DNA of 64,000 nucleotides from Octopus vulgaris (taxonomy: Eukaryota): contig OX597817.1 in assembly GCA_951406725.2 (NCBI GenBank), positions 48,298,001 through 48,362,000 of the forward strand, given 5' to 3'. This document shows, piece by piece, positions 36,937-60,119 of the stretch; the first letter of the stretch is position 1; each line of letters starts with the position of its first letter. Under the pieces are notes generated by a model. That model did not search any database. It was not told the origin of the DNA and was given only the letters and a program-made list of their open reading frames with translations. A program made the translations under genes and the position numbers.

Positions 36937-37723
36937 GGTATTCACATGAGTATTCACATGAGTGATGACGCGACCTTTCATGTACATGTTGCTAAACTGA
37001 CAATGAAATGTAGACGGCTGGCTGGATGGATTCTTAGAACCTTTAGAACAAGAGAACAAGAAACCATGATGGTCCTCTGGAGGACACTTGTCCTAAGCCA
37101 CTTTGACTATTGCTCTCAGCTATGGTCACCATCCAGTGTCAAGTTGATCACAGAACTTGAGGCGATCCAACGAAGCTTCACGAAGAAGATAGCCTCTGTG
37201 CAGCATATGAGCTACTGGGAGAGACTCAAGAGATTAAAGCTCTATTCCCTGGAGCGTAGGCGAGAAAGATATGCCATAATATATATCTGAAAGATCCTGG
37301 AAGGTCTTGTCCCAGACTTTGGCATCGAGAGTCACACAAATGCCAGAACCGGACGCCACTGCGTAGTACCAAGGACTCCAAATTTGCCATCAAGATGTAG
37401 GACAAGATACTGTGATAGCCTGGGCTTTAGAGGCTCACGGCTCTTCAATATCCTCCCGAAGAACCTGAGGGACCTGCATGGTGTAGATGCGGATGTCTTT
37501 AAAGTAGGACTGAATCTCTTCCTGTCAGGTGTCCCGGATGAACCAACTTCACGGCAGGAGGTGCAGATGAGGGCAGCTGCATCGAACTCTCTCATGCATC
37601 AGATGGCGTTTGCTAAAAAGCATCCGTGAGGTAAAACCGTGTAGCAAACCAAATGGCGGTGCCCCAGCATGGCCACAGCTCATTAGCTGAAACTGGAAAA
37701 TCAAAATCAAAAATCAAAATCAA
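36937..37723 (+). mobile_element. 5'-truncated family F2 LINE
   Basis: RT C-terminus with an (AAATC)n tail. Confidence 0.9.
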
Positions 37724-41664: not shown

Positions 41665-42652
41665 TTTTATCTAGTTTCAGCTCACGAGCTGTGGCCATGC
41701 TGGGGCACCGCCATTTGTTGCTGCTACATGATTTTATTTCACGAATGCTTTTTAGCAACTGCCATTTGGTGCAAGAGAGAGTTCGATGCAGCTGCCCTCA
41801 TCTGCACCTCCTGTCGTGAAGTTGGTTCATCCGGGACACCTGACAGGAAGAGATCCAGTACTACTTTAAAAACATCCGCATCCACCCCATGCAGGTCCCT
41901 CAGGTTCTTCGGGAGGATATTGAAGAGCTGTGGGCCTCTGAAGCCCAGGCTATCACAGTATCTTGTCCTACATCTTGATGGCAAATATGGAGTCGTTGGC
42001 ACCACGCAGTGGCGCCCAGTTCTGGCATTTGTGTAACTCTCGATGCCAAAGTTTGGGACAAGTCCTTCCAGGATCTTCCAGATGTATATTATGGCATATC
42101 TTTCTCGCCTACGCTCCAAGGAATAGAGTTTTAATCTCTTGAGTCTTTCCCAGTAGCTTATATGCTGCACAGAGGCTATCTTCTTCGTGTAGCTTCGTTG
42201 GATCGCCTCAAGTTCTGTGATCAACTTGACACTGGATGGTGACCATAGCTGAGAGCAATAGTCAAAGTGGCTTAGGACAAGTGTCCTCCAGAGGACCATC
42301 GTGGTTTCTTGTTCTCTTGTTCTAAATGTTCAAAGAATCTATCCGGCCAACCGTTTACATTTCATTGCGAATTTAGCAACATGTACATGAAAGGTTGCGT
42401 CATCACTCATGTAAATACCCAGGTCACGCACTGATTGTGCCTCTGGGATTGCAATCCCTCCAAGTCCAGTGTATTCATTGGGTATTGCATTTAGTTTTGC
42501 ATGCTGATAGCATAAAGCTTGAAATTTTCAGCATTGAACTGCATGCTATACTTTTCAGCCCACTTGTATATTTTGTCCAGCTCACATTGCAGGTGCTTAG
42601 TGTCTTCAGGGTCCTGTATTGCCTGTGAAACTTTTGTATCATCTGCATAACT
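41665..42652 (-). mobile_element. 5'-truncated family F2 LINE
   Basis: Starts at SYADDTK. F2-type 3' end. Confidence 0.9.
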
Positions 42653-45074: not shown

Positions 45075-48000
45075 TCAAAAATGTCCAGAGCCTGGAAAAG
45101 TAATGAATTGGCGTTGTTCCTGAGAGCCTGGTAATGCCGACGGAGATAATCCGAACAACATAATTACAGCTGCGCTAAAGAGCAGTGGATATAAAAGATA
45201 GAGCAAAAAAAGCAGGCGTTTATACGCTCCTATGCACTCATAAGATCTCACAGTGGCACGCTTGATGCCATCTTTGACAACGAACAAAGTAAAGATGGCA
45301 AGGATGGAGACACGGGTGCTGATGAAAGATGTCACCCCCACTTGGTAAGCACCCAGGTAGAAGATTTAAGTGAGAAACCTTCACGGGAATTAAACCCAAG
45401 TGTAAGTGCTCCTACCAGCACCAAAAGCCATGGAGATAAAAGAGCCAAAAAAGAAACAGCCAAAGAAGGAAAAACTAAAACTCAAACAAAACCAAAAGAT
45501 GAAACAGCCAAGGATAGAAGCAAACCTGACTATCCATGTACCAAAAAGGATAGAAACAGACAGCGCACACGAATATGTAAATTCTACATGAAAGGTGTCT
45601 GCTGGCATGGAGAGGAAGGTGCAGACTGCCGTTTTGTACATCAAAGACCCTGCCACATAAAGTCGAAACAGGTCAGAAACCAACTACCAAAAGGAAAAGG
45701 AATGGACCCCGCACCACCTGCCCAAAATGGAGGTACGCAGATGTGGTGCGTGCTAAAACCGCCAACATGTTATTGAAAGGGCAGCTGCTGAACAAGAATC
45801 TTTTTTGTGCATGGCACAAAAGATTGTACAGCAGCTAACCTGACTCCATCAAACTCAAACTCGCAGATGGGACTATCCACAATATACAAGACAGCCACAG
45901 CAAATAGACCCAAGGTGGACACCGCCGGCAACAGCATACACCTCACCTCGATGCTCCTACTGAACATCAGAGGACTGCAAACACTCAGTAACAGGACAAA
46001 AATCCCGTTCTTGACAGACTTTGTTGCATGCAATCAAGCCTTATGCATAGCACTTACGGAAACACACCTGAAACCGAACATAGCAGATGCGGAATTACAC
46101 ATACCACAGTATGTTGTACTACGGACCGACAGAAACGAAAGGAGTCATGGAGGAGTTGCTATGTACATCAGTGAGGATCTCACACCCCAGGGCCATTTGT
46201 CATACTCAAACTCGGTGTGTGACACACTAATTGTTCATATAAGGCAACTTGGTGTAGTTGTGTGTGCTACATATCGCCCTCCAGATGCCCCAAGCCATGT
46301 AGGCAAGTTTGAAGACTGCCTTATAAAAATAGAAGAAGTTCTAGTCACATTAGAACAACACATAAGTGTACTTCTTATGGGAGACTTCAATCTACCCAAT
46401 GTCAGATGGCCCGAGGGCCTTTCTCTCCCAGGAATGACATGATGTGAACGAGGACAGGCGAGGTCTCTCCTGAACCTCATCAACACCCTGTACATGGAGC
46501 AAGTAATACTCCAACCAGCCAGGGCAGGAAACATACTGGATCTCTGCTTCACAAATAATATGGATCTCATCCATAATGTGAAAGTGACACCGACACTACT
46601 CTCGGATCACAACATGGTAGAGCTGACCATGTACGGGCCAAAGGAAAGCATGGACATGCAGCCTACAAGAAACTCTCAGAATCTTTCCAGCTTGAACTTC
46701 CATTAGGCAAACTGGAAACAAATTGAGAAAGAGATCCTCAAACAAAACTGGCCTGAATGTCTCTCCTCACCAGACATCGATATGAAACTCCAACAATTCA
46801 TGTATTTAATGCAAGCCATATGCTACAAATGTGTCCCAGAGAGAGAGGCCACTGTACACAAGAACGAAATCCCCAGAGAGAGGAAAATTCTAATGAGATG
46901 GCGTACAAAAGTTTCAAATCGCCTAAACAAACAAATTGAAAGCAGTGAAAAGTCCCGCCTGAAAATAAAACTGTTGGAAATTGAAAATTGTCTGCAACTC
47001 TCCCATGAAAAGGAAAGAGCAGACAAAGAAGCCTGGGCTATAGACAACATAAAATCTAACCTCAGAGCTTTCTACAGGTATGCCAAAGAAACAGCTACGG
47101 TGCACTGTAGGATAGGGCCACTCCTTGAAAAGGATGGCACACTCACAGGAAATCCAATTAGGGTAAGTGAAATACTAAATGAGTAATTCAAGAGTGTTTT
47201 CACTCCACCCCTTGGGCATTTCCAAATCAGCAATCCAACTGACTTCTTTACCACTGCAGATATAGAATCAGAGGCAGCGATGATTGATTACATCAATATA
47301 AAGGAAGACGATGTAATAAAGGCTATAGATGAAATGAAAACAAACTCAGCTACTGGCCCCGATGGATTCCCGGCAATCCTCCTAAAAGTATGTAAGAGAG
47401 TCCTAGAAAGACCACTGCAGTTCCTCTTTCAGAGCTTACTTGCAGCTGGCAAACTTCCAAGAAAACTGAAGGAAGGTAAAATATGCCCTATTCATAAAGG
47501 AGGTAGCAGAGCGGAGGCCAAGAACTACAGACCTATCTCTCTCACCTCACACATCAGCAAGGTCATGGAACGAATAGTCAGAAGGAAACTAATCACCTTC
47601 CTTGAAGAAAATGACTTGCTGCCTGACACCCAACATGGTTTCCGACCAGGAAGAAGCTGCTTAACTCAGCTCCTACAACACTATGACTGGGTGCTGAAAC
47701 GACTGCTCAACCACTCAAATGTGGAAGTGATATATCTCGACTTTGCAAAGGCCTTTGATAAAGTCGATCATGGAATGATGTCACAAACTGCGTGATCTTG
47801 GCATAGTTGGAAAATTGGGAGGATGGCTTCATGACTTTCTGAAGGATAAAATTCAGGTGGTAGTAGCCATTGAGGCCACTTCCATTAACACGCAAATAGT
47901 GAGCGGTGTTCCACAGGGCACTGTTTTGGGACCACTACTGCTCATAATGGCCCTCTCAGACATGCCCCCAGCCTCGTAGAGAGCCACGATCAAAAGTTAT

Positions 48001-48985
48001 GCAGATGATACAAAAGTTTCACAGGCAATACAGAACCCTGAAGACATTAAGCACCTGCAATGTGAGCTGGACAAAATATACAAGTGGGCTGAAAAGAATA
48101 GCATGCAGTTCAATGCTGAAAAGTTTCAAACTTTATGCTATCAGCATGCAAGACTAAATGCAATACCCAATGAATACACTGGAGCTGGAGGGATTGCAAT
48201 CCCAGAGGCACAATCAGTGCGTGACCTGGGTATTTACATGAGTGATGACGCAACCTTTCATGTACATGTTGCTAAATTCGCAATGAAATGTAAACGGTTG
48301 GCCGGATGGATTCTTTGAACATTTAGAACAAGAGAACAAGAAACCACGATGGTCCTCTGGAGGACACTTGTCCTAAGCCACTTTGACTATTGCTCTCAGC
48401 TATGGTCACCATCCAGTGTCAAGTTGATCACAGAACTTGAGGCGATCCAATGAAGCTAAACGAAGAAGATAGCTTCTGTGCGGCATGTAAGCTACTGGGA
48501 AAGACTCAAGAGATTAAAACTCTATTCCTTGGAGCGTAGGCCAGTAAGATATGCCATAATATACATCTGGAAGATCCTGGAAGGACTTGTCCCAAACTTT
48601 GGCATCGAAAGTTACACAAATGCCAGAACTGGGCGCCACTGCGTGGTGCCAACGACTCCAAATTTGCCATCAAGATGTAGGACAAGATACTGTGATAGCC
48701 TGGGCTTCAGAGGCCCACAGCTCTTCAATATCCTCCCGAAGAACCTGAGGGACCTGCATGGGTTGGATGCGGATGTCTTTAAAGTAGTACTGGATCTCTT
48801 CCTGTCAGGTGTCTCGGATGAACCAACTTCTCGGCAGGAGGTGCAGATGAGGGCAGCTGCATCGAACTCTCTCTTGCACCAAATGGCAGTTGCTAAAAAG
48901 CATTCGTGAAGTAAAATCATGTAGCAAACCAAATGGCGGTGCCCCAGCATGGCCACAGCTCGTGAGCTGAAACTAGATAAAATAT
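45075..48985 (+). mobile_element. Near full-length family F2 LINE, disrupted by stops and frameshifts
   Basis: Basic ORF1 with a CCCH finger (CKFYMKGVCWHGEEGADCRFVH), APE endonuclease (LNIRGL, LTETHL, YRPP, GDFNLP, LSDH), RT and F2 tail. The 5' boundary is approximate. Confidence 0.9.
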
Positions 48986-49417: not shown

Positions 49418-49440
49418 ACTAGCATTAAAGACCCGTCGTT

Positions 49441-49598
49441 GCTGGGTCATAGTGCTAGTGCACGTATATATGTGTATATATATGTGTACATCTATATATA
49501 TACATCTACACATAAAATGCTGGGTCATAGTGCTAGTGCACGTATATATGTGTATATATATGTGTACATCTATATATATACATCTACACATAAAATGC
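49441..49598. repeat. 78-bp tandem duplication inside the Helitron
   Basis: GCTGGGTCATAGTGCTAG... at 49441 and 49519. Confidence 0.95.
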
Positions 49599-49649
49599 AA
49601 AATACAAGGTTATATCTTGATATCGCTATTGATAACAATACTCAAAATA

Positions 49650-49665
49650 TATAACAGACTGGAAT
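49650..49665. repeat. 16-bp target-site duplication of Tx1 element A (second copy 54851-54866)
   Basis: TATAACAGACTGGAAT is exact at both ends. Confidence 0.85.
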
Positions 49666-49904
49666 TGTTTTATTATTACTCACAAGGGGCGAACATAGAG
49701 GGGACAATACAATCTGATGTGGGGACAGATATACGAATGGGTTTACAAAAAAGGCGAATTTAAAAATTTACAAAAATTACAAAAATAGAAAAAATCGAAT
49801 GGGGAACAGACCGGAAGACATTACGGATGGAGTGGGGGCGGGTTTAGCTCGGACCCCACGAGCCCCGCTCCCCACTGATACTTTGGTTTCGTCTAGTTTT
49901 ACAT

Positions 49905-52900
49905 TTATGTGGTATCATCCACTCGCAACTTTCGTGCTACATCTTTCCATCGTTCTTCATACACTCTCTTTGTCAGGCATTTTCTCTCCAGCCATATCTT
50001 CCTTTTCAGGTGAAAGATGAAGTAATTCATCAAACCAGGGCCGGAGATGAACTTGCCTGACCGTAAACTTTTCATTCTCGTCTTCCATATCACCTCTTTC
50101 GCAATTGCTACTACAACGAGAAAACAATTCTTACCTTCTTTCGCGAGGAAATCTGGTGGGTCAATTTTTGTAATAGACTCAGTCGACAGCTGTACTCTTC
50201 GTGTGCTTGACAACAGCTGTTCGGCATAAACCCACACCTCAGACACGACCGAACAATGAACAATAGCGTGCGGGACGGTTTCCCTATCCCGCTCGCATCT
50301 TGGACATATCGGACTGTCTTGGCCACCGTGCCTTGCGAGTTTATCCCGAACAGGTAGAGCTCCTCTGTAGCATTGCCATGCCAGAGACTTCTGGAAGTTG
50401 TCCAGTGTCTTCGGCTCGAACGTACGTCGGAACAGACTGGCCAGCTGATTATCGTCGAGACCTAGGGTTTCCCCCAAGGTATCTTCACATTCCGCCTCTA
50501 CCAACCCTCTATAGAAGAATGTGGTGGAACCCCCACCGCAGGCGTTGCCCGAGCGACGGGATAGCAGGAGAGCCTTGCGACACTCCGTGTACCATGTGCC
50601 CAGTTTCGATCTACGGTTCAGCCAGGTTTCCCATCCACCGAAACTAGTGAACTTGGGAAACATCAGTTTTGCTAGCGGAGACCACACCCGTTCACCATCC
50701 AGGTAGAGCCACAGATGTCTTAACCTCAGCGCATGTCTGCGCATCATCAGCCAAGGCATCCCTAGCCCACCCTTTAACGATTGTTGACAGCAAGTAGAGC
50801 GTTTCACAAGTGGTTTCCCGCCCTTCCACAAGAAGTAGAAGAGCTGTCTTTCCAACTTGATCAACCACGAATCAGGGCAAGGAACGACGGAAAGGCGGTA
50901 GGTGATAACCGATGCGATAAACACATTGGCTACCTCCGCCCTCCCTTTCAGGGATAGCCACCGCCAAGACCAGGTCTTGGTTACTGCAGCCACCCTGCTC
51001 GATACCTCGCCCCAATTCTTCTCTATTTGGAGGTCAGGACCGAACCAAACCCCTAGCAACTTAATCGGACCCTCCGTCCAACGTCCTACGACGCTGTCAG
51101 GAGGCATCGACTTGCCTCTCCAGGTGCCGAGTTGCAAGCCGACTGACTTTTCACGATTAACTTTTGCTCCTGTCACCGTCTCGTAAACCTGTATGGCCTT
51201 GCCTACTTTACGTAGGTGATCCATTTCGGTTACGATGATGGTGATGTCATCCGCGTACGCTGACACCGATTTTCCACTACCTGGCTGTCTCGGGATGCCG
51301 CTCAGTTTTCGCAGTAATGGCTCAAGAGTCATCACGTACAAAAGCGGGGAGAGCGGACACCCTTGACGAACCGAGCGCTTGATGTTGAACGGCTTCGACA
51401 AGAAGCCGTTCACCCGAACTACCGAGTCGATGTTGTCGTAAATTTGGATAATCCACCTGAGGAAGCCAAGGCCCAGCCCGAACTGTGCCAGGGCAGATAC
51501 CAGGTAGCGATGGTCGACCCTATCGAATGCTTTAGATTGGTCTAAATGGACCAGTGCCCCACCCTTGCCAGAATCACTATTAAACCCCTCTATAGTGTAC
51601 CGCATAAGATGGAGATTATCCTGAATGGTTCTGCCGGGAACGGCACATGTCTGCCTCCCCGATCAAACCATCCGCGACACGCGCCAATCTTTTCGATAAC
51701 ACTCTGGCCAAAATCTTCAACTCTGTGTTTAGCAGAGTGATGGGCCTGAAATTATCAATGCACTCCTCCTTGCTCGGGTCCTTTCTGACGAGTGTCACTA
51801 CTCCCCGGCGCACAGATCTGGGTATGAACCCGTTCTGCTTCCAGTTCGCATAGACCTCCGCCAGTAGGTGCCCGAACAAGTCTGGCATACTCTTATATAA
51901 CTTATAGGGTAGACCATCTAAACCCGGCGCCTTGCCCGCGCCGCAGTCCGCCATCGCCTCAACCACCTCCCCAGGCGTGATTGGCCCTTCACAGCCCTCC
52001 GCATCTCGCCCCGATAAGCGCGGCAGCCCGTCGAGGAGGTCCGTAAAGGCCCTCCTCCTATTCAGTCCGCCGCACTCACCGAAAAGCTGAGCGAAGTGCT
52101 CCTGAAAGGCCTCATACATCTCTTCGGGCTCGTTTATCAACTCACCTTGTTGGTTCGTCATAGATCGAATCGTGGCGTCGTTACCACGCTGAGCTTCCAC
52201 CACTCGGGCCCATCTCACGGCGTTGATTCCTTCACAACCCATTGCGCGGATCCTAACCCTGACAATGCAGCCCATGTGTTTGGCCTCGAGGTGCTGGTTT
52301 AACGCAAGTCTCTTGGCCGCCACCTGAACCGCAGAGCCAGATTTCAAGGCTTCCTCTAATTCCCTAACTAGAGTAGATTCCCTCCTAGCCTCTCTAGCCA
52401 CTAATCCTATGCTATATCTAATAGACTCGAATTTGATGGCTCGCTTGAGGGCATACCACCATTTGTTATTAATGATGGCACCAGATAGTGCCCTCTGAAT
52501 TATAGTCCTAATCCGGTCTCTGTACTCCTTAATCGCCAAAAGGGACGTATTAAGTTTCCAGTAACCGGAGCCTCTATTTTTAACCTTATCTATGTCAAGC
52601 TTACAGGTGACCATTTTATGATCACTGTAGCTGACCAGGTAAAACTGTGGACACTTAGCTATTTTTCTGTCTACTTTTCTAATTAGTATCCTATCTATGT
52701 ATGACCTGGAAGATCCGTCGCTGTTTGACCATGTCCACAATGGAGCGTTCGGAAATTCCAACCTATAAGGATCTGCTAGCTCAAAGCGGCTTAGCAGTTC
52801 CAGGAAGCCAATGTTACCTTTTCTATCTGGACGCAAGCCAACACAATCTACATCCGTTTTGCAAATTGTGTTAAAGTCTCCTAGCATAACTAATGAATGC

Positions 52901-53298
52901 GAAGTACCAAGAAAGTTTTCCAGTTCTCGAAAATAATCACTTTGCCCTTTTTGGTTAGGTGCGTAAATTGCATCCAGTCTGATAACTTTACCGTTACTGA
53001 ACGTCAAATCCATGACGACCAGCCTACCTTCTGGGTCTGAAAAAATTAACTTTTTCTCAAAAACCCGGTTTCTTTTTAATAGGACCAACACCCCACCCCC
53101 GCCTGTAGGACTGGCCGGAGAGAAAAAACTCTCGTAGCCGTCAAACAGCGGGAGTAGACCTTTTGGCCCCTCTAACCGGGTTTCTGTAGCAACAATAACA
53201 TCCAAATTACGCGACCTGATATCATTAAGGAAGCGACCTTGCTTCCAGCTTGATCCCAGGCCGCGCACATTTAAACAACCAACAAAAATGCAATCCAT
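49905..53298 (-). CDS. Tx1 ORF2 (APE endonuclease, RT, C-terminal zinc finger) with one frameshift at ~51650
   Basis: CLNVRGL, TET, GDFN, YIDR, SDH; KAPGLDGLP, FRPITLLN, KAFDRV, RQGCPLSP, YADD; CPRC...HAIVHC. Confidence 0.92.
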
Positions 53299-53306
53299 GA
53301 CTTACC

Positions 53307-54580
53307 TTATATCAGTGGTTCGACTTGTTCGACTTGTTTTTCTTCTTCTTCACTTTTATTTTTTTCCTGGGCTCGTGGGGGAGTCCGACGCAGGCCCTCG
53401 TATAAATATGGAGATATATCCAATCTCAGAGGGCCCACGTCGTGAAAGAATTCGGATTTTATCCGTCCGTAATCCTTCCCGCCTATTCTATAAACAATAC
53501 AGTCTTTTGTTTTTTTAATTTTCTCCACCTTGGCCATGGCTGCCAAAACGTTAATTAGCCTGTTGTTGGCAGCCTTAATGGCCATAAATGTATTCGTCGC
53601 TTCTTTCCTCTTTTTTTGGCTCTCTTTCTGAGGGGTGGTTTCTGTTTTCCGTTTTTTTTTTTGGTAATTTTTGACCACCCCTCCTCTTTTTCCTTTTCTT
53701 CGCCGCTTGTTGTTTCTGTTGCTTCTTTGGTTTCTGTAGTTTCTGGTGTTTTCTCTTCTGTTTTCTCTTTTCTTGTTTTTTCTTTTTCTGGCGGTGCTGC
53801 TTCCTGCGGTCTAGGTTGGCACTCCGCTCTCACGTGCCCCTTTTTACCGCAGCCGAAGCACCTCGGCTTTCTGCCCTCCACAAACACTATCACCCTCTCC
53901 TCCTCGCTGATCCTTAATGTCTCTGGAATTTCTTCCAATGTTTGTACTTCCGTTTGTATCACTATTGAAATGCATTGGCCTTGCCAATGCTCCTCCTCCT
54001 CTACTGTAGCCTGGAGGATATTGATTTTTTTCCTCCAGGCCTAACATGACTGCCGCCACCAGGCATGTGGCATCTGCCTCTGGGGGAATGTTTCTTATTT
54101 TGATTTTTGAGGTCCTTCTGCCTCTGTACAGGGGGAGGAGGACTATATTATCGGCTTTTAGTGGTTCAGTTGATAGCTTTTTAGCTATCTCTTCTGACCT
54201 GAACCTCACCTCTACCGTTCCAAATCTTCTTCCACGATTTATATAAGTTATTTCCTGCCATATTGTCTTTAGGCAACACTCGATTTTCTTTTCTTCCACT
54301 CTTTGAATGGACTTCGTTGTTGAGTTGTACGTTTTATAAATAATCCTTTTTTTTTCCACCTCTTCCATCTTACTGACGTCCGGCGTTACTGATACTTCTG
54401 TACCTTCCTTTTTAGACATGCTGTGTATTTTTCCAGGCTGCTTCTTTCTGTTTTAATTGTCTTCAGCTTCTTGCCCGCAACTTCAGAAAACTTCTTAGCT
54501 GGGGCTTCTTCTGCTTTCGGCGACACCGCCGGTGAGCTTTCTTCACCTGACACAGGTGAATAGGAGATGGGGGTATCCAT
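53307..54580 (-). pseudogene. Tx1 ORF1 (gag-like, single CCHC knuckle), frameshifted
   Basis: FGTVEVRF, IRNIPPE, VEGRKPRCFGCGKKGHVRAEC, spread over several frames. Confidence 0.85.
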
Positions 54581-54866
54581 CTCGAAAATGGCTTAATAAG
54601 CATTTCAATTGGCTTTCACAAGCCTTCAAAAAATTCAGGCTTCGCAAGCCTTTTGTGTAGATTTTTAAATGTGTTCCACACAAAATGTTCCACAATAATT
54701 CCCCTGCAGGGGGGAATTAAATACGTAGCCTTCGCGCGAAGGCTAATGACAGTCTTATACAAAAGACACAATATATCAATCAAAGTAACAGTAATTAAAT
54801 TAACAAACCGGTATTAACAAAGTAGCAGCAAATGACAAAACAGACTGGCGTATAACAGACTGGAAT

Positions 54867-56639
54867 GATTTTATTACTACCCACAAGGGCGAACATAGAG
54901 GGGACAATACAATCGGGGAACTTAAAATAAGAAAGCGAATGACAAGAAAAGGAAAAAATAAAAGTAATAATGGCATATGAAAGAATATTTACAATGAGAT
55001 GTAAATGTCCACTCGATCCCCGGAATCAAGAGGTTACATTTTCGTCAGTTTTATCACATATATTTCACCAAATTTTTTCTTTTTTTTTTTCCTCTCACAA
55101 TTTTACATATATTCTATGATTTTTTCTACTCCTCTGAAGTCCATCACTGAATCCTCAGGCAGCCGCTCTCTTACTCGAACCTTCGTGTAAAATATTACAT
55201 TTTCCCCAGCAGCTCTGAGGAACTCAGCGGCACTTTCTTCGGGGATTAGAGCAGTCTCCTGCCACCGGTCGGTCATCCTGTTGACCCATATATGTCCCTC
55301 CGTTTTACTTGTCAAGTCATTCATTACAGGGCAGAAATGGTAGGTTACTAACTTGTAGTAATAGTAATCTTGTTTCCACCCTGCGTTTTCCTTCATCTTC
55401 CTTTTCGGGCTTATTTCTTCCTTGTTCTCCTCTCTTTGTTTCTCTCTTTCTCTCTTTTTGCCTTCTTTTCTTTCTCCTTCCTTCTCTTGTCTTTTTGGCT
55501 CTTTGTCTGTTTTCTCTTTCTCTCGTGCTTTATGTTCCTTTCCTGTATTTTCTTTTTCCTTTTGTATGCCGTCTTTTCTTTTCGTTTGATTCTGATCTCT
55601 CTCTTGTTTTTTTCCTATTGTTTCTTTTTCCTTTTTTTTTTCCTGACTCTGTTTTGGTTCTATTTCTTTTTTTCTATTATTTCTTTCTCCTTCATTGACT
55701 TATTATTTCCTTTCTCTTGTTGTTTTGTTTCCTTTTCTATGCTTTCTTTCTCATTTATAGTATTCTTCTTTTCTTCAAGTTCCTGCTCGCACACCGCTAC
55801 AAATTCATATAACGGGCACTCTTTTTTAATGTACCCCCTTGTCCCACACAAGTAACAGTTTGGTTTTCTCCCCTCTACAATTACGCTGAGGGTTTTTTCC
55901 TCTTCAATTTCAATTCTGTAGGGAAACCTTTCAATATCCTCTTTTGTGACCATAAGCCACAATTCTAACCCATATCCTCTCCAGTTTACCGCGTTGGACT
56001 CCTTAATTGATTCCACCTCCACTTCCTCTTCTGCTGCTCCTAGAATAGCTGTTGCCAGCCATTCTATTTTCACTTCTGGGGGTATATTCGGGATTTTAAC
56101 CCGGACCCCTCTTCTTCCCTTATATGAGGACCACATTGTGAATTTTTCGGCTCTTAGTACGGTGGTAGCCAGTGAGGCCGCAATTTCCTCCGTTGCACAT
56201 CTCACCTCCACCGTACCAAACTCACGTAGGTTATTTTCCCCATTATGTCTCCCAGACATTTCTCAATTTCGTCTATCTCTACTCTTGCCAGTTTCTTCGT
56301 ATTCTTGTCTTGGGTTCTATATGTCACCGTCTTGCTTTCTTTATCCTCTTTTGCTTTCGCGGGGGGGATTAGCTTCACGCTATCACCCTCCCTTTTGAAA
56401 AGCTTTTCATATTCTTTGAGTTTCTCCTTCTCAAAGAACACCTCCCTTACAATTATCGACGAATCGTTATTTTTTCCGGTTCCCCCGCGTAAGTCGCCAT
56501 GACTAGAGGGTCAATACACCTTCTTCGGAAGGTTTCCACACGTGGAGGCAAACGCCTCGCGCGATATCAAATCAATTTACACAGAAAAAATTCACCGTCT
56601 GGTCACAACTAACAACACACACTCGATTAAGACTGCAAT
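54867..56639 (-). mobile_element. ORF1-only non-autonomous Tx1-type element B
   Basis: ORF1 (ATG 56500 to ~55103, frameshifted) with VEGRKPNCYLCGTRGYIKKEC. No EN or RT. 3' end shared with A. Confidence 0.85.
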
Positions 56640-58589
56640 GATTTTATTACTACCCACAAGGGGCGAACATAGAGGGGACAGTACAATCGGAGAAAAAAAA
56701 AATAATGAAATATGAAATATGTATAAATGTGGTGTAATGCCCCAACCAATCCCCGAAATCAGGTGGTTACATTTCGTCGTTTTTAATTACATTTTATAAT
56801 GTTTTCAAAAGTAACAAATTCATTTTTCAGCATTTCGCAATACATTTCAATACATTTCAAAGTATAATTTCAAAATACATTATCAATTACAAAAAATTGT
56901 TTTCACAAATTCACATATAAAGCTTTCGCAATACATCTTTAAGATTTCAAAATACATTTGAAATAAACAAAAGTCTTTCCAAATTCTCTTTTTCTTTTTT
57001 TTTTTCTTATAATTTTAAATTAGTTCCATTACCTTTTTTAGGTCATTGTAATTTTCCATCTCACGTGGGTACCTTAGCAGTCGGCACTTCGTGTGTCTTG
57101 TTACGTTCATACCAGCGGCCTCGATAAACGCATCGGCGTTGTCTTCATGGACCAGTGCACCCGTTTCCTTCCACTCCGTGCCCATCCTGACCCATGAATA
57201 ACCCTCCGTTTCACTAATTAATTCCTCCATCTCCCCACAGTGTCTATATTGTACCAATGTTCCGTAAAATTTGTATCTTTTATTTGACCCTATGTTTTCT
57301 TTAGTTTTCCTCTTCGGACTTACTTCTTCTTTACCTTCCTCTCTCGGTTTTTCTCTTTCTCTCTTTTTGCTTTCCTTTTCTTTTTCCTTCTCTTGTCTTT
57401 TTGGTTCTTTGCCTGTCGTATGTTCTTTTCCTGTTTTTTCTTTTTCTTTTTGTGTAGCAGCCTTTCCTTTCTCTTGATTCTGTTCCTTCTCTTGTTTTTT
57501 TTTCTGTTTTTTCTCATTCCTTTATTTTACTTACTTTTTCTTTCTCTATTACCTGTGACTTTTGTTCTTTTTCTATTAATTTCTTCCCTTTGCTTTCATT
57601 TTCCTTCTGTGTATTGTTATTTCCTTTTACCGTTGTTTCCTTTTCCTTGCTTTCTTTCTCCTTTAGAGTATTGTTCCCTTCTTCGGTTTCTTTTTCTTTC
57701 TCTTTTTTGTTTTCCTCTGCTTTTTCACACTCCGCCACGAATTCGTATAGCGGACATTCTTTTTGAATGTGAGCTCTTGTCCCACATAAATGACAGTTGG
57801 GTTTCCTCCCCTCAACGATTACGGAGAGGGTTCTACCATCTTCTACTTCTATTTGGAAGGGAATTCTATCTATATCGCTGTTTGTGGTCGTCAGCCACAT
57901 CTCTACTCCGAATCCCTTCCATTTCATTGTGCTAGTCTCCTTTATCGATCCAATTTCTATATCTTCCTCAGCTGATCCTAGGATGGCTGTTACCAGCCAT
58001 TCTGGTTTTAAATCTGGGGGTATATTTGGGATTTTAACCCGTACCCCTCTTTTCCCTTGTAGGTAGGCTACATGACGAAGTTTTCGGTTCTGAGTACGGT
58101 GGTAGCTAGCGAGGCCGCAACTTCTTTTGTTGCGTACCTCACCTCCACCGTACCATATTTCTTGCCTCTGCACACAAAGGTAGCCTTTTTCATAACGTCG
58201 TCCAGACATTTTTCTATGTCTTCTATTGCTATTCTTGATAGCTTTCGTGTGGTCGTGTCCTGTGTCCTATAAATTATAGTTTTGTCCTCTTTTTCCTCCT
58301 TTGCTTCAGCAGGGGGGGGGGGACCAGCTTCACTCTGTCACCCTCCCTTTCAATGAATTTCTCAAATTCCTCTAGCTGTTCTTTTTTAAAGAACACCTCT
58401 CTTACTGTCAGCGGCGTATCGCTTTTCATTGCGGCGACCCCCGCGTAAGTCTCCATGACTTGAGGGTCGGCGCACTTTCTACAAAAAGTTTCTAACGCGC
58501 AGCGGCAAATGCCTCGCGCGATTCAAATTTTTTTCAATTTCTATATACAAAATTAACAATTACTTAACACACGCGATTAAAACTGCGAT
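56640..58589 (-). mobile_element. ORF1-only non-autonomous Tx1-type element C
   Basis: ORF1 (ATG 58456 to ~57015, frameshifted) with VEGRKPNCHLCGTRAHIQKEC. No EN or RT. 3' end shared with A. Confidence 0.85.
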
Positions 58590-58939
58590 TGTCAGCTCTT
58601 CTTTTTTCTCTACATTGTATGCTTTATAGACAATAGTCTTTTCTTTAATTTAATTTTTGATTATCCATCTGGACTATTCCATTTCTGCACGCTAATTATA
58701 TTTTTAATTTCTTCCCATTCATGTGAAACCACTTATTCAAGTTCAAATCATTGATGCAATTTTATACCAATTGCTATTTTTACTTTTGTATGTTACGATT
58801 ATAATATACTTTAGTTTGATTTAAATTATTTCCTACTACATATAATTAAATTGTTATTATTATTTTTATTGTTAAAGTGAAAGCATCTGACATAAAATAG
58901 AGAAATATTTTTGTTTCACTTTTAACACGTAATACTGAA

Positions 58940-59228
58940 ATAGTGGAAAAGATATAATATTGCTATAGGCTCGCTCTAGACAAGAATTTGAACTTTTTTC
59001 TTGCCCATGAAACTACATGGACCCTAAGTAAGGCATGTGTAATATTTGAATGAAATTGGTTGTCTAGTTCTCAAGTTTTAGGGAATCGTAGTGGAGAAGA
59101 TATGATATTGCTGTGGGCTCGCCCGAGGCAAAAAATAAAAAAATTGCCGATGACACTCCCCGGACCCTAAGTAAGGCATGTGTAAAATTTGAATGAAATT
59201 GGTTGTGTAGTTCTCAAGTTTTAGGGAA
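58940..59228. repeat. ~145-bp imperfect tandem duplication near the Helitron 5' end
   Basis: GGACCCTAAGTAAGGCATGTGTAA at 59019 and 59162. Confidence 0.9.
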
Positions 59229-59287
59229 ACACACAGACACACATTCTCAATTTTATATATATAAAGATATATATATATACTTATATT

Positions 59288-59600
59288 ATCATCATGATCA
59301 TCATCATCATCATTTAACGTCCGTTGTCCATACTGGCATAGGTTGGACGGTTTGACTGGGCTGGCATGCTAAAAGGCTGTGCCAGGCTCCAGTTTAATTT
59401 AGCTTGGTTTACTTCAGTTGAATTCCCTTCCTAATGCCAACCACTCTAAGAGCGTAATGAGTGCCTTTATGTGCCACCGGCTGTTTGCCATTTGCATGAC
59501 AATGACATCAGCCACAACTGCAATTTTGCTCAGTTTCATGGGTCTCTTCTCAAGCATGACATAAGGCCAAAGGTCTTGGTCATTGCCTCCGTGAGGCCCA
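59288..59600 (-). mobile_element. RTE LINE 3' fragment
   Basis: (CAT)n followed by TTTAACGTCCG...GGTTGGACGG, as at 13815. Confidence 0.8.
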
Positions 59601-60119
59601 ACACTCGAAAGGAACTCGGCTACTTTGCCTCCATGAGGCCCAACACTCGAAATTAACTAAGCTACCTCGCCTCTGTGAGGCTCAACACTCAAAAGGAACT
59701 CGGCTACTTTGCCTCCGTGAGGCCCAACACTCGAAAGGAACTCGGCCACTTTGCCTCCATGAGGCCAAATGCTCGAAATGAACTCAGCCACTTTGCCTCC
59801 ATGAGGCCCAACACTCGAAAGGAACTAAGCTACCTCGCCTCTGTGAGGCCCAACACTTGAAAGGAACTCAGCTACTTTGCCTCCATGAGGCCCAACACTC
59901 GAAAGGAACTAAGCCACCTCGCCTCTGTGAGGCCCAACACTCGAAAGGAACTTGGCTACTTTGCCTCCATGAGGCCCAACACTCAAAAGGAACTCGGCCA
60001 CTTTGCCTCCATGAGGCCCAACACTCGAAATGAACTAATCCACCTCGCCTCTGTGAGGCCCAACACTTGAAAGGAACCACCTTGCCTCCATCAGGCTCAA
60101 TGCTAAAATGGAACTCAGC

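Follow-up and report, generated by a model that had tools for sequence, protein, structure and literature searches.

Two units that encode only an ORF1 protein lie head to tail with a complete LINE inside a Helitron-like element of Octopus vulgaris, in the stretch of 64,000 nucleotides analysed here (contig OX597817.1, positions 48,298,001 to 48,362,000; the window). As a whole, these units, B and C, are best explained as dead copies of old ORF1-only sister families whose copying relied in trans on a complete LINE, with its ORF2 protein acting by way of their 3′ tail, a reading to which we assign a probability of about 0.8. On the minus strand of the window, read 5′ to 3′, the order is C (58571-56640), B (56621-54867), and the complete LINE A (54850-49666). 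B and C are ORF1-present non-autonomous LINEs: they encode ORF1p only, have fixed ends, occur in many copies, show in copies of B and of a related family, D, the marks of target-primed reverse transcription, and are under purifying selection.

Element B (54867..56621, minus strand) measures 1.77 kb including its junction word, and element C (56640..58571, minus strand) 1.95 kb. The ORF1 of B (55103..56500, minus strand) has its ATG at 56500, a CCHC motif at 55857, a K/E-rich linker, and a C-terminal domain (55106..55372). That of C (57015..58456, minus strand) has its ATG at 58456, two predicted RNA-binding domains, a CCHC motif at 57795, the K/E linker, and a C-terminal domain (57018..57284) for which a structure model predicts a ferredoxin-like alpha/beta fold. 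The sole Pfam match on ORF1 was zf-CCHC, and sequence searches of both units gave no match to an endonuclease (EN) or a reverse transcriptase (RT). The sizes, CCHC ORF1, K/E-rich linker, C-terminal domain, and lack of EN and RT described in an earlier note on this DNA were all found, and the peptide motifs it had quoted from the two C-terminal domains are present in both translations. Both window copies are dead. B carries three frameshifts compared with an intact copy (its intact relative L024 encodes 469 aa), and in C the reading frame shifts three times and is interrupted by one or more in-frame stops, while L038, L034, L037, and L042 are intact relatives of its ORF1.

At the DNA level, B and C are 70% identical over 1273 columns. 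With A they share only the last ~60 nt (89-94% identical), plus low-complexity matches of 24-80 nt in the linker. The N-terminal halves of their ORF1s are 31-46% identical to that of A by tblastn, as expected from the claim that these proteins are homologous to, yet diverged from, ORF1 of A. We rejected a derivation of the C-terminal domain from the end of ORF2 through a fusing deletion, as tblastn with ORF2 matched nothing over B or C. Each 3′ UTR contains a hairpin conserved across relatives (55009..55033 in B; 56742..56766 in C, with a G-rich loop and mutated in the window copy). The 3′ tail of B (54867..54920) is A-type and discordant with its body in identity comparisons, and the tail of C (56640..56694) is common to B and A by DNA comparison. 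Hairpins with G-rich loops but different stems occur 100-200 nt before the tail in A (49846-49866), in B/C/D (55009-55033 in B), and in family G (L199).

Element A (49666..54850, minus strand) is a complete L1/Tx1-type LINE, with ORF1 running from 54580 to about 53370 and ORF2 from 53298 to 49908, both frameshifted. Pfam recognises APE endonuclease, RT, and zf-RVT domains; A thus combines an APE endonuclease, an RT, and a C-terminal zinc region with an ORF1 of the RNA-binding/CCHC type, and its closest solved relative is human L1 ORF2p (E 3e-63). We use the label "Tx1" for A provisionally, on anatomy and target preference rather than on a tree against named references. The target preference of A-type elements appears as two recurring 3′ flanks, present in 19/126 and 10/126 distinct tail flanks. 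Several complete LINE families share the A-type tail and site. A second complete family, A2 (L119), inserts about 10 bp upstream of the site of A in the same Helitron. The complete LINE also occurs in apparent tandem runs of its own, with a period of about 5.3 kb as judged from match spacing (G000:C27:32956079-32988053, C22:14180304-14241478, and C30:10431501-10447549). A further recurring target outside the Helitron is seen in the 3′ flanks of L012, L013, L048, L066, and L137, beside a motif similar to the ends of Penelope-like elements.

Non-autonomous Helitrons begin with TC, end with CTAG after a subterminal hairpin, and insert between A and T. The element that encloses the train extends from 59267 to 49419 and has all of these features. 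Its 5′ arm (58591..59267, minus strand) starts with TC at 59267 after an A, is conserved in 45 blastn rows (fetched loci, duplicates included), and terminates in a decayed ORF1-like scrap; its 3′ arm (49419..49665, minus strand) contains a subterminal hairpin and ends in CTAG at 49419 before a T. The same flanks, with the TC start, the hairpin and CTAG end, and the A/T insertion point, recur at many loci. The host of the train is therefore a non-autonomous Helitron-like element. Empty copies of it make up 5/19 rows; they too contain the decayed ORF1 scrap, and the insertion target lies within that scrap. In the window, A is bounded by a 16-bp target-site duplication (5′ copy 54851..54866, identical 3′ copy 49650-49665). 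A junction word lies between C and B (56622..56639), and the word between the Helitron arm and C (58572..58590) is an altered copy of the target word, so that window C has no clean target duplication around it but a match of 5 nt only. The adjacency of C, B, and A is best read as serial insertion at one site inside a Helitron, and both the host and this mode of assembly had been overlooked in the earlier note.

Elsewhere in the window lie a 42-bp minisatellite of 12.9 copies (59583-60119) and a decayed LINE of another type on the plus strand (45195-48930). Inverted copies of this other type occur at 26533-27240, 36944-37646, and 41722-42528, with several 3′ fragments 93-97% identical. Repeat finding over the whole window was dominated by microsatellites.

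Neither unit is single-copy, a state that the earlier note had named as one that would refute its reading. For B, at least 34 other near-full-length matches (86-95% identity) were found among the best 24 of 647 candidates scored, and for C at least 10 (83-96%) among the best 40 of 646. The genome search with C (best 40 of 646 candidates scored) also revealed a third family, D, at 71-75% identity, and the arrays that hold B, C, and D contain further ORF1-only families, E, F, and G. Intact frames (465 aa or longer) persist in 3/52 B, 4/13 C, and 5/20 D extracted copies, which were collapsed by exact sequence only, so that one locus may count twice. Between intact copies, dN/dS was 0.23 (0.16-0.31) for B-C, 0.18 for B-D, and 0.20 for C-D; it was 0.16 within C (between subfamilies) and 0.21 within D, with all bootstrap intervals below 0.4. 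For the C-terminal domain alone, the corresponding values were 0.41 for B-C, 0.12-0.17 within C, and 1.0 within D, the last being uninformative. Intact copies elsewhere and dN/dS values of 0.16-0.23 bear out the selection proposed previously; ORF1 of B and C is under purifying selection.

Most B copies are nevertheless frameshifted, and one particular -1 change, at a C run around base 144 of ORF1, recurs in 28/62 B rows. This change may be an inherited frameshift, slippage, or an assembly error. Therefore, some B elements may have spread without an intact ORF1, or else DNA-level copying or assembly error may be responsible. Frameshifts in B lie near homopolymer runs in 96/149 cases, against a background of 16%. 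Private A>G changes, considered as a candidate mark of RNA editing, exceed T>C changes in all three families (63/22 in B, 65/41 in C, and 34/13 in D), counts that are not normalised and come from an A-rich strand; in copy L166, 7 of 10 private changes on the same A-rich strand are A>G. The named protein relatives of B are all labelled Octopus vulgaris. Since contigs under three other organism labels (X9, X16, and X17) cover B and C, the families are probably present in related species. Contigs of runs guessed to be RNA also cover both units, an observation given no weight here as a sign of expression.

The phylogeny of ORF1 places B, C, D, and their older relatives in one clade of 27 rows (support 100/100) with zero autonomous rows, and A in a separate clade. 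This tree was built from 50 N-terminal regions taken from 143 rows, after rows cut by a locus end were dropped and the rest collapsed at 92%; the A clade includes a single row with an ORF1-only label, and E/F and G carry long-branch warnings. None of 49 non-redundant C-terminal domains of the B/C/D type leads into ORF2 without an intervening tail, and an ORF2 match within 900 bp was seen for one of the 49, with a tail in between. The same search over family G gave 0/43. In these sampled members, then, the full-length element with a deleted ORF2 that would have reduced B and C to simple derivatives did not appear. Members down to 33% domain identity follow a single 3′ UTR plan, which contains no remnant of ORF2. 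Its hairpin is 94% paired across members, with two-sided changes at 4/10 pairs, although relatedness can inflate this figure. The oldest B/C/D subgroup is linked to family G by profile (probability 92-95%, 0/25 shuffles). Because the clade is single and without an autonomous row, no domain is joined to ORF2, and the 3′ UTR plan is common, B and C appear as sisters in one old ORF1-only lineage; on the sequences, they are neither deletion derivatives of A nor of independent origin. Of the earlier proposal of independent lineages under selection, the selection and the exclusion of deletion from A or of a recent duplication have held, but the independence has given way to sister families of one old clade.

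That B and C are instead recent, separate internal deletions of autonomous families still to be found, with a signature of selection that dates from the autonomous phase, is in our judgement highly improbable. The genome searches leave some room for it, as only the best 150/249, 150/1035, and 150/13016 candidates were scored and a rare autonomous element with a B/C-type ORF1 could exist. Against this, the remnant-free 3′ UTR plan is shared by all sampled members, however distant, and selection persists between ORF1-only C subfamilies at dS 0.4. Mobility of the ORF1-only RNA is indicated by copies outside the arrays. Solo 5′-truncated D copies are flanked by target duplications of 17, 12, and 7 bp at three loci, and a solo near-full B copy by one of 7 bp at one locus; no solo C copy with a clean target duplication was found among the solo loci examined. 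Since these D and B copies bear the marks of target-primed reverse transcription (5′ truncation and target duplications), the ORF1-only RNA has been retrotransposed, and since B, C, and D encode no ORF2, the enzyme must come from a partner. The tail and insertion site that A has in common with them suggest A as the donor in trans. The solo copies of B and D also end at their own tails, which is difficult to reconcile with a passive ride in cis, where transcripts reading through a whole train would be reverse-transcribed from the 3′-most complete LINE. Such a ride, which we consider very unlikely, would fit the complete LINE at the end of 16/21 arrays and the units of L055 and L057, which sit at non-Helitron sites yet begin with a few bases that resemble the Helitron. 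However, 5/21 arrays hold ORF1-only units alone, and at L057 a 17-bp duplication of local sequence lies between two units, which hence represent two insertions.

These counts come from arrays with a visible 3′ Helitron arm, a non-random sample of 21 found by searches with B, C, and A. In 11/21 arrays, the sequences on the two sides of the 5′-most unit match over at least 12 nt, compared with 1.4 (maximum 6) in shuffled pairings; the match is shorter in the other 10/21, window C included. The sequence of the empty site is retained at the last junction, and the inner junctions vary, a pattern that fits growth at the 5′ end. It is unlikely that spread occurred mainly as DNA, with units formed once in the Helitron and then multiplied by rolling-circle copying and unequal exchange. 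Most sampled arrays do lie inside the same Helitron arms, some include 5-8 consecutive B units that have junction words in common and are up to 99.8% identical, and the frameshift common to many B rows could have been copied in this way. But the order and content of the arrays differ, empty Helitrons exist, solo truncated copies with duplications lie outside the Helitron, and dN/dS within families is well below 1. Given the identity between array neighbours, tandem duplication probably adds copies, and DNA-level copying in general probably does so too, but it cannot account for the families. Near tail-only insertions (~55 nt) lie between some units (L099+100:6343-6413 and L101+102:6097-6162) and are possible intermediates of tail exchange. 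At L014, L091+092, and L119+120, the junction word is changed, and the border between Helitron and word is, by eye, often more palindromic than the empty site, which could be due to template switching during integration.

Tail sharing alone proves little, as every related LINE seen carries the tail motif. More telling is the discordance between tail and body, here in comparisons over short windows of hand-picked copies. Between window B and its older relative L151, identity is 87% for the domain and 96% for the upstream UTR but falls to 79% over the last ~42 nt. Over those last ~42 nt, window B is 95-98% identical to two A copies, 92% to a third, and 92-100% to C. The tail of another older relative of B, L142, is 86% identical to the complete family A2 versus 68-71% to A. 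In family G, two copies are 97% alike in the domain and 96% in the UTR, but 62% in the last 30 nt. Exchange of the tail is the simplest reading of this discordance, and it appears to have happened more than once; fast convergent change in a short hairpin may be another source. The borrowed 3′ end postulated earlier is thereby supported for B and for family G, whose tails seem acquired rather than simply inherited. An abundant SINE-like repeat of ~185 bp, often in tandem (L145:552-952, L162:306-891, and L136:3345-3530; depth spike at 56651-56853 in the window), ends in the A/B/C tail, and the same LINE group may therefore mobilise it as well.

The C-terminal domain of B and C spans ~90 aa. It had been described as their own and as not evident in A. 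For sequence, this description stands, in that profile-profile comparison (hhalign) of the B/C/D and A domains gave no link (E 0.59; 23/30 shuffles scored as high), nor was there an indirect profile link via families G, A2, or E/F. Yet A carries, after a frameshift, a domain of ~75 aa (about 53394..53606, minus strand) at the same position and with the same predicted topology, and this domain was conserved in all 150 A-type ORF1s scored (best 150/383 candidates). A weak match between the B/C/D and E/F domains (E 0.003, 0/30 shuffles) is a lead only. Pfam on 40 C-terminal domain sequences gave nothing above cut-off, ESM Atlas gave no usable match, and Foldseek against PDB gave none at E<=0.001 with either domain model. 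A profile of the domain retrieved 5 proteins from 1.84 billion representatives, all labelled Octopus vulgaris, which gives no taxonomic range because eukaryotic repeats are poorly annotated there. The fold check proposed earlier gave the B/C/D domain a ferredoxin-like alpha/beta model (beta-alpha-beta-beta-alpha-beta, pLDDT 80), but a like topology was predicted for A (beta-alpha-beta-beta-alpha with a poorly predicted end, pLDDT 64, which is weak). Both models match ferredoxin-like sandwiches at Z 5-7, a range that reflects a common fold, and have 17 of the top 50 structural matches in common. As to a relation with the RRM, the best structural match of the B/C/D domain is an unrelated ferredoxin-like domain (Z 7.1, rmsd 2.4, 70 aligned). 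The shared position and predicted topology suggest common descent with fast divergence, which we favour with some reserve; since the ferredoxin-like fold is common, separate acquisition of the domains is the less favoured alternative.

Under trans-copying, a complete LINE such as A likely supplies the ORF2 protein that copies B and C, and this protein probably recognises the ~45-55 nt 3′ tail. New units would land at the 5′-most junction and duplicate up to ~17 bp, so that trains would grow at one end and the complete LINE would usually be kept at the 3′ end. A change of partner would need replacement of the terminal tail only, for which template switching or recombination among adjacent units of a train would be the simplest route. 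ORF1p may be retained for packaging its own RNA in cis, and the C-terminal domain would be this lineage's own, rapidly diverging form of a small ferredoxin-like domain that is also predicted in ORF1 of A. Tentatively, and with considerable doubt, the families might be an ancient radiation of ORF1-only parasites that outlived its autonomous ancestors by repeated capture of the ~45-nt address tail of active LINEs, with Helitron trains as the place of exchange and the C-terminal domain as a module for recognition of self or partner.

Several known systems resemble parts of this arrangement. In mammals, HAL1 (half-L1) elements are non-autonomous, encode ORF1p only, and arose more than once (PMC5753468, PMC5786205), and B and C are like them in the first two respects. 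However, HAL1 derives from mammalian L1, whose ORF1 has a coiled coil-RRM-CTD organisation (PMC5203782), whereas ORF1 of B and C is of the RNA-binding plus CCHC type, with zf-CCHC and no Transposase_22-type match in Pfam. Besides, B and C end in a defined tail, not poly(A), and their insertion is site-preferring and serial. Under a strict definition, B and C are not HAL1 elements. In Drosophila, HeT-A and further telomeric Jockey elements that have ORF1 alone, about 40% of the telomeric families in one study, form head-to-tail arrays with complete partners (PMC13534243, PMC5786205), as B and C do; in contrast to these elements of chromosome ends, the B/C arrays are interstitial, spread over many contigs, placed inside a Helitron, and separated by short inter-unit duplications. 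Ag-Sponge, of the CR1 clade, is likewise an ORF1-present non-autonomous LINE (PMC5786205) but belongs to a different clade from B and C. Site preference within a DNA transposon and tandem insertions with a duplication in between have been reported for Tx1L in Tx1D of Xenopus and for Tx1-Mar and SINEU in Mariner-N4_AMi of crocodilians (PMC4494074). A and its passengers share both properties, although those passengers are SINEs without coding capacity, in a piggyBac or Mariner host, whereas B and C code for ORF1p and lie in a Helitron-like element. Tandem dimers have been explained by double insertion, where site preference and target duplication preserve the site so that tandems can expand (bioRxiv 10.1101/158386); those dimers are mostly of the same family, while the trains described here mix several families and have polarity.

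In PMC5786205, the passage on sources of ORF1-present elements lists Jockey, L1, and CR1 but makes no mention of Tx1. The repeat annotation of O. vulgaris includes L1-Tx1 and Helitron families, and the terms "ORF1" and "non-autonomous" are absent from its main text; the repeat library of PMC13282606 may hold the present families under automatic names. In literature outside Repbase, Dfam, and subscription journals, we found no ORF1-only LINE derivatives from Tx1-type elements, nor any stacked in a Helitron. While ORF1-only derivatives are thus already known from the L1, Jockey, and CR1 clades, those from a Tx1-type source and those stacked in a Helitron would be new. These families offer natural variants for two questions. 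One is how few 3′ bases suffice for the enzyme of a LINE to take up a foreign RNA and insert it at a chosen target, a point of relevance to tools for site-specific insertion; the other is why a passenger goes on paying for ORF1p. If true, tail exchange would account for the survival of coding yet non-autonomous elements while their partners turn over.
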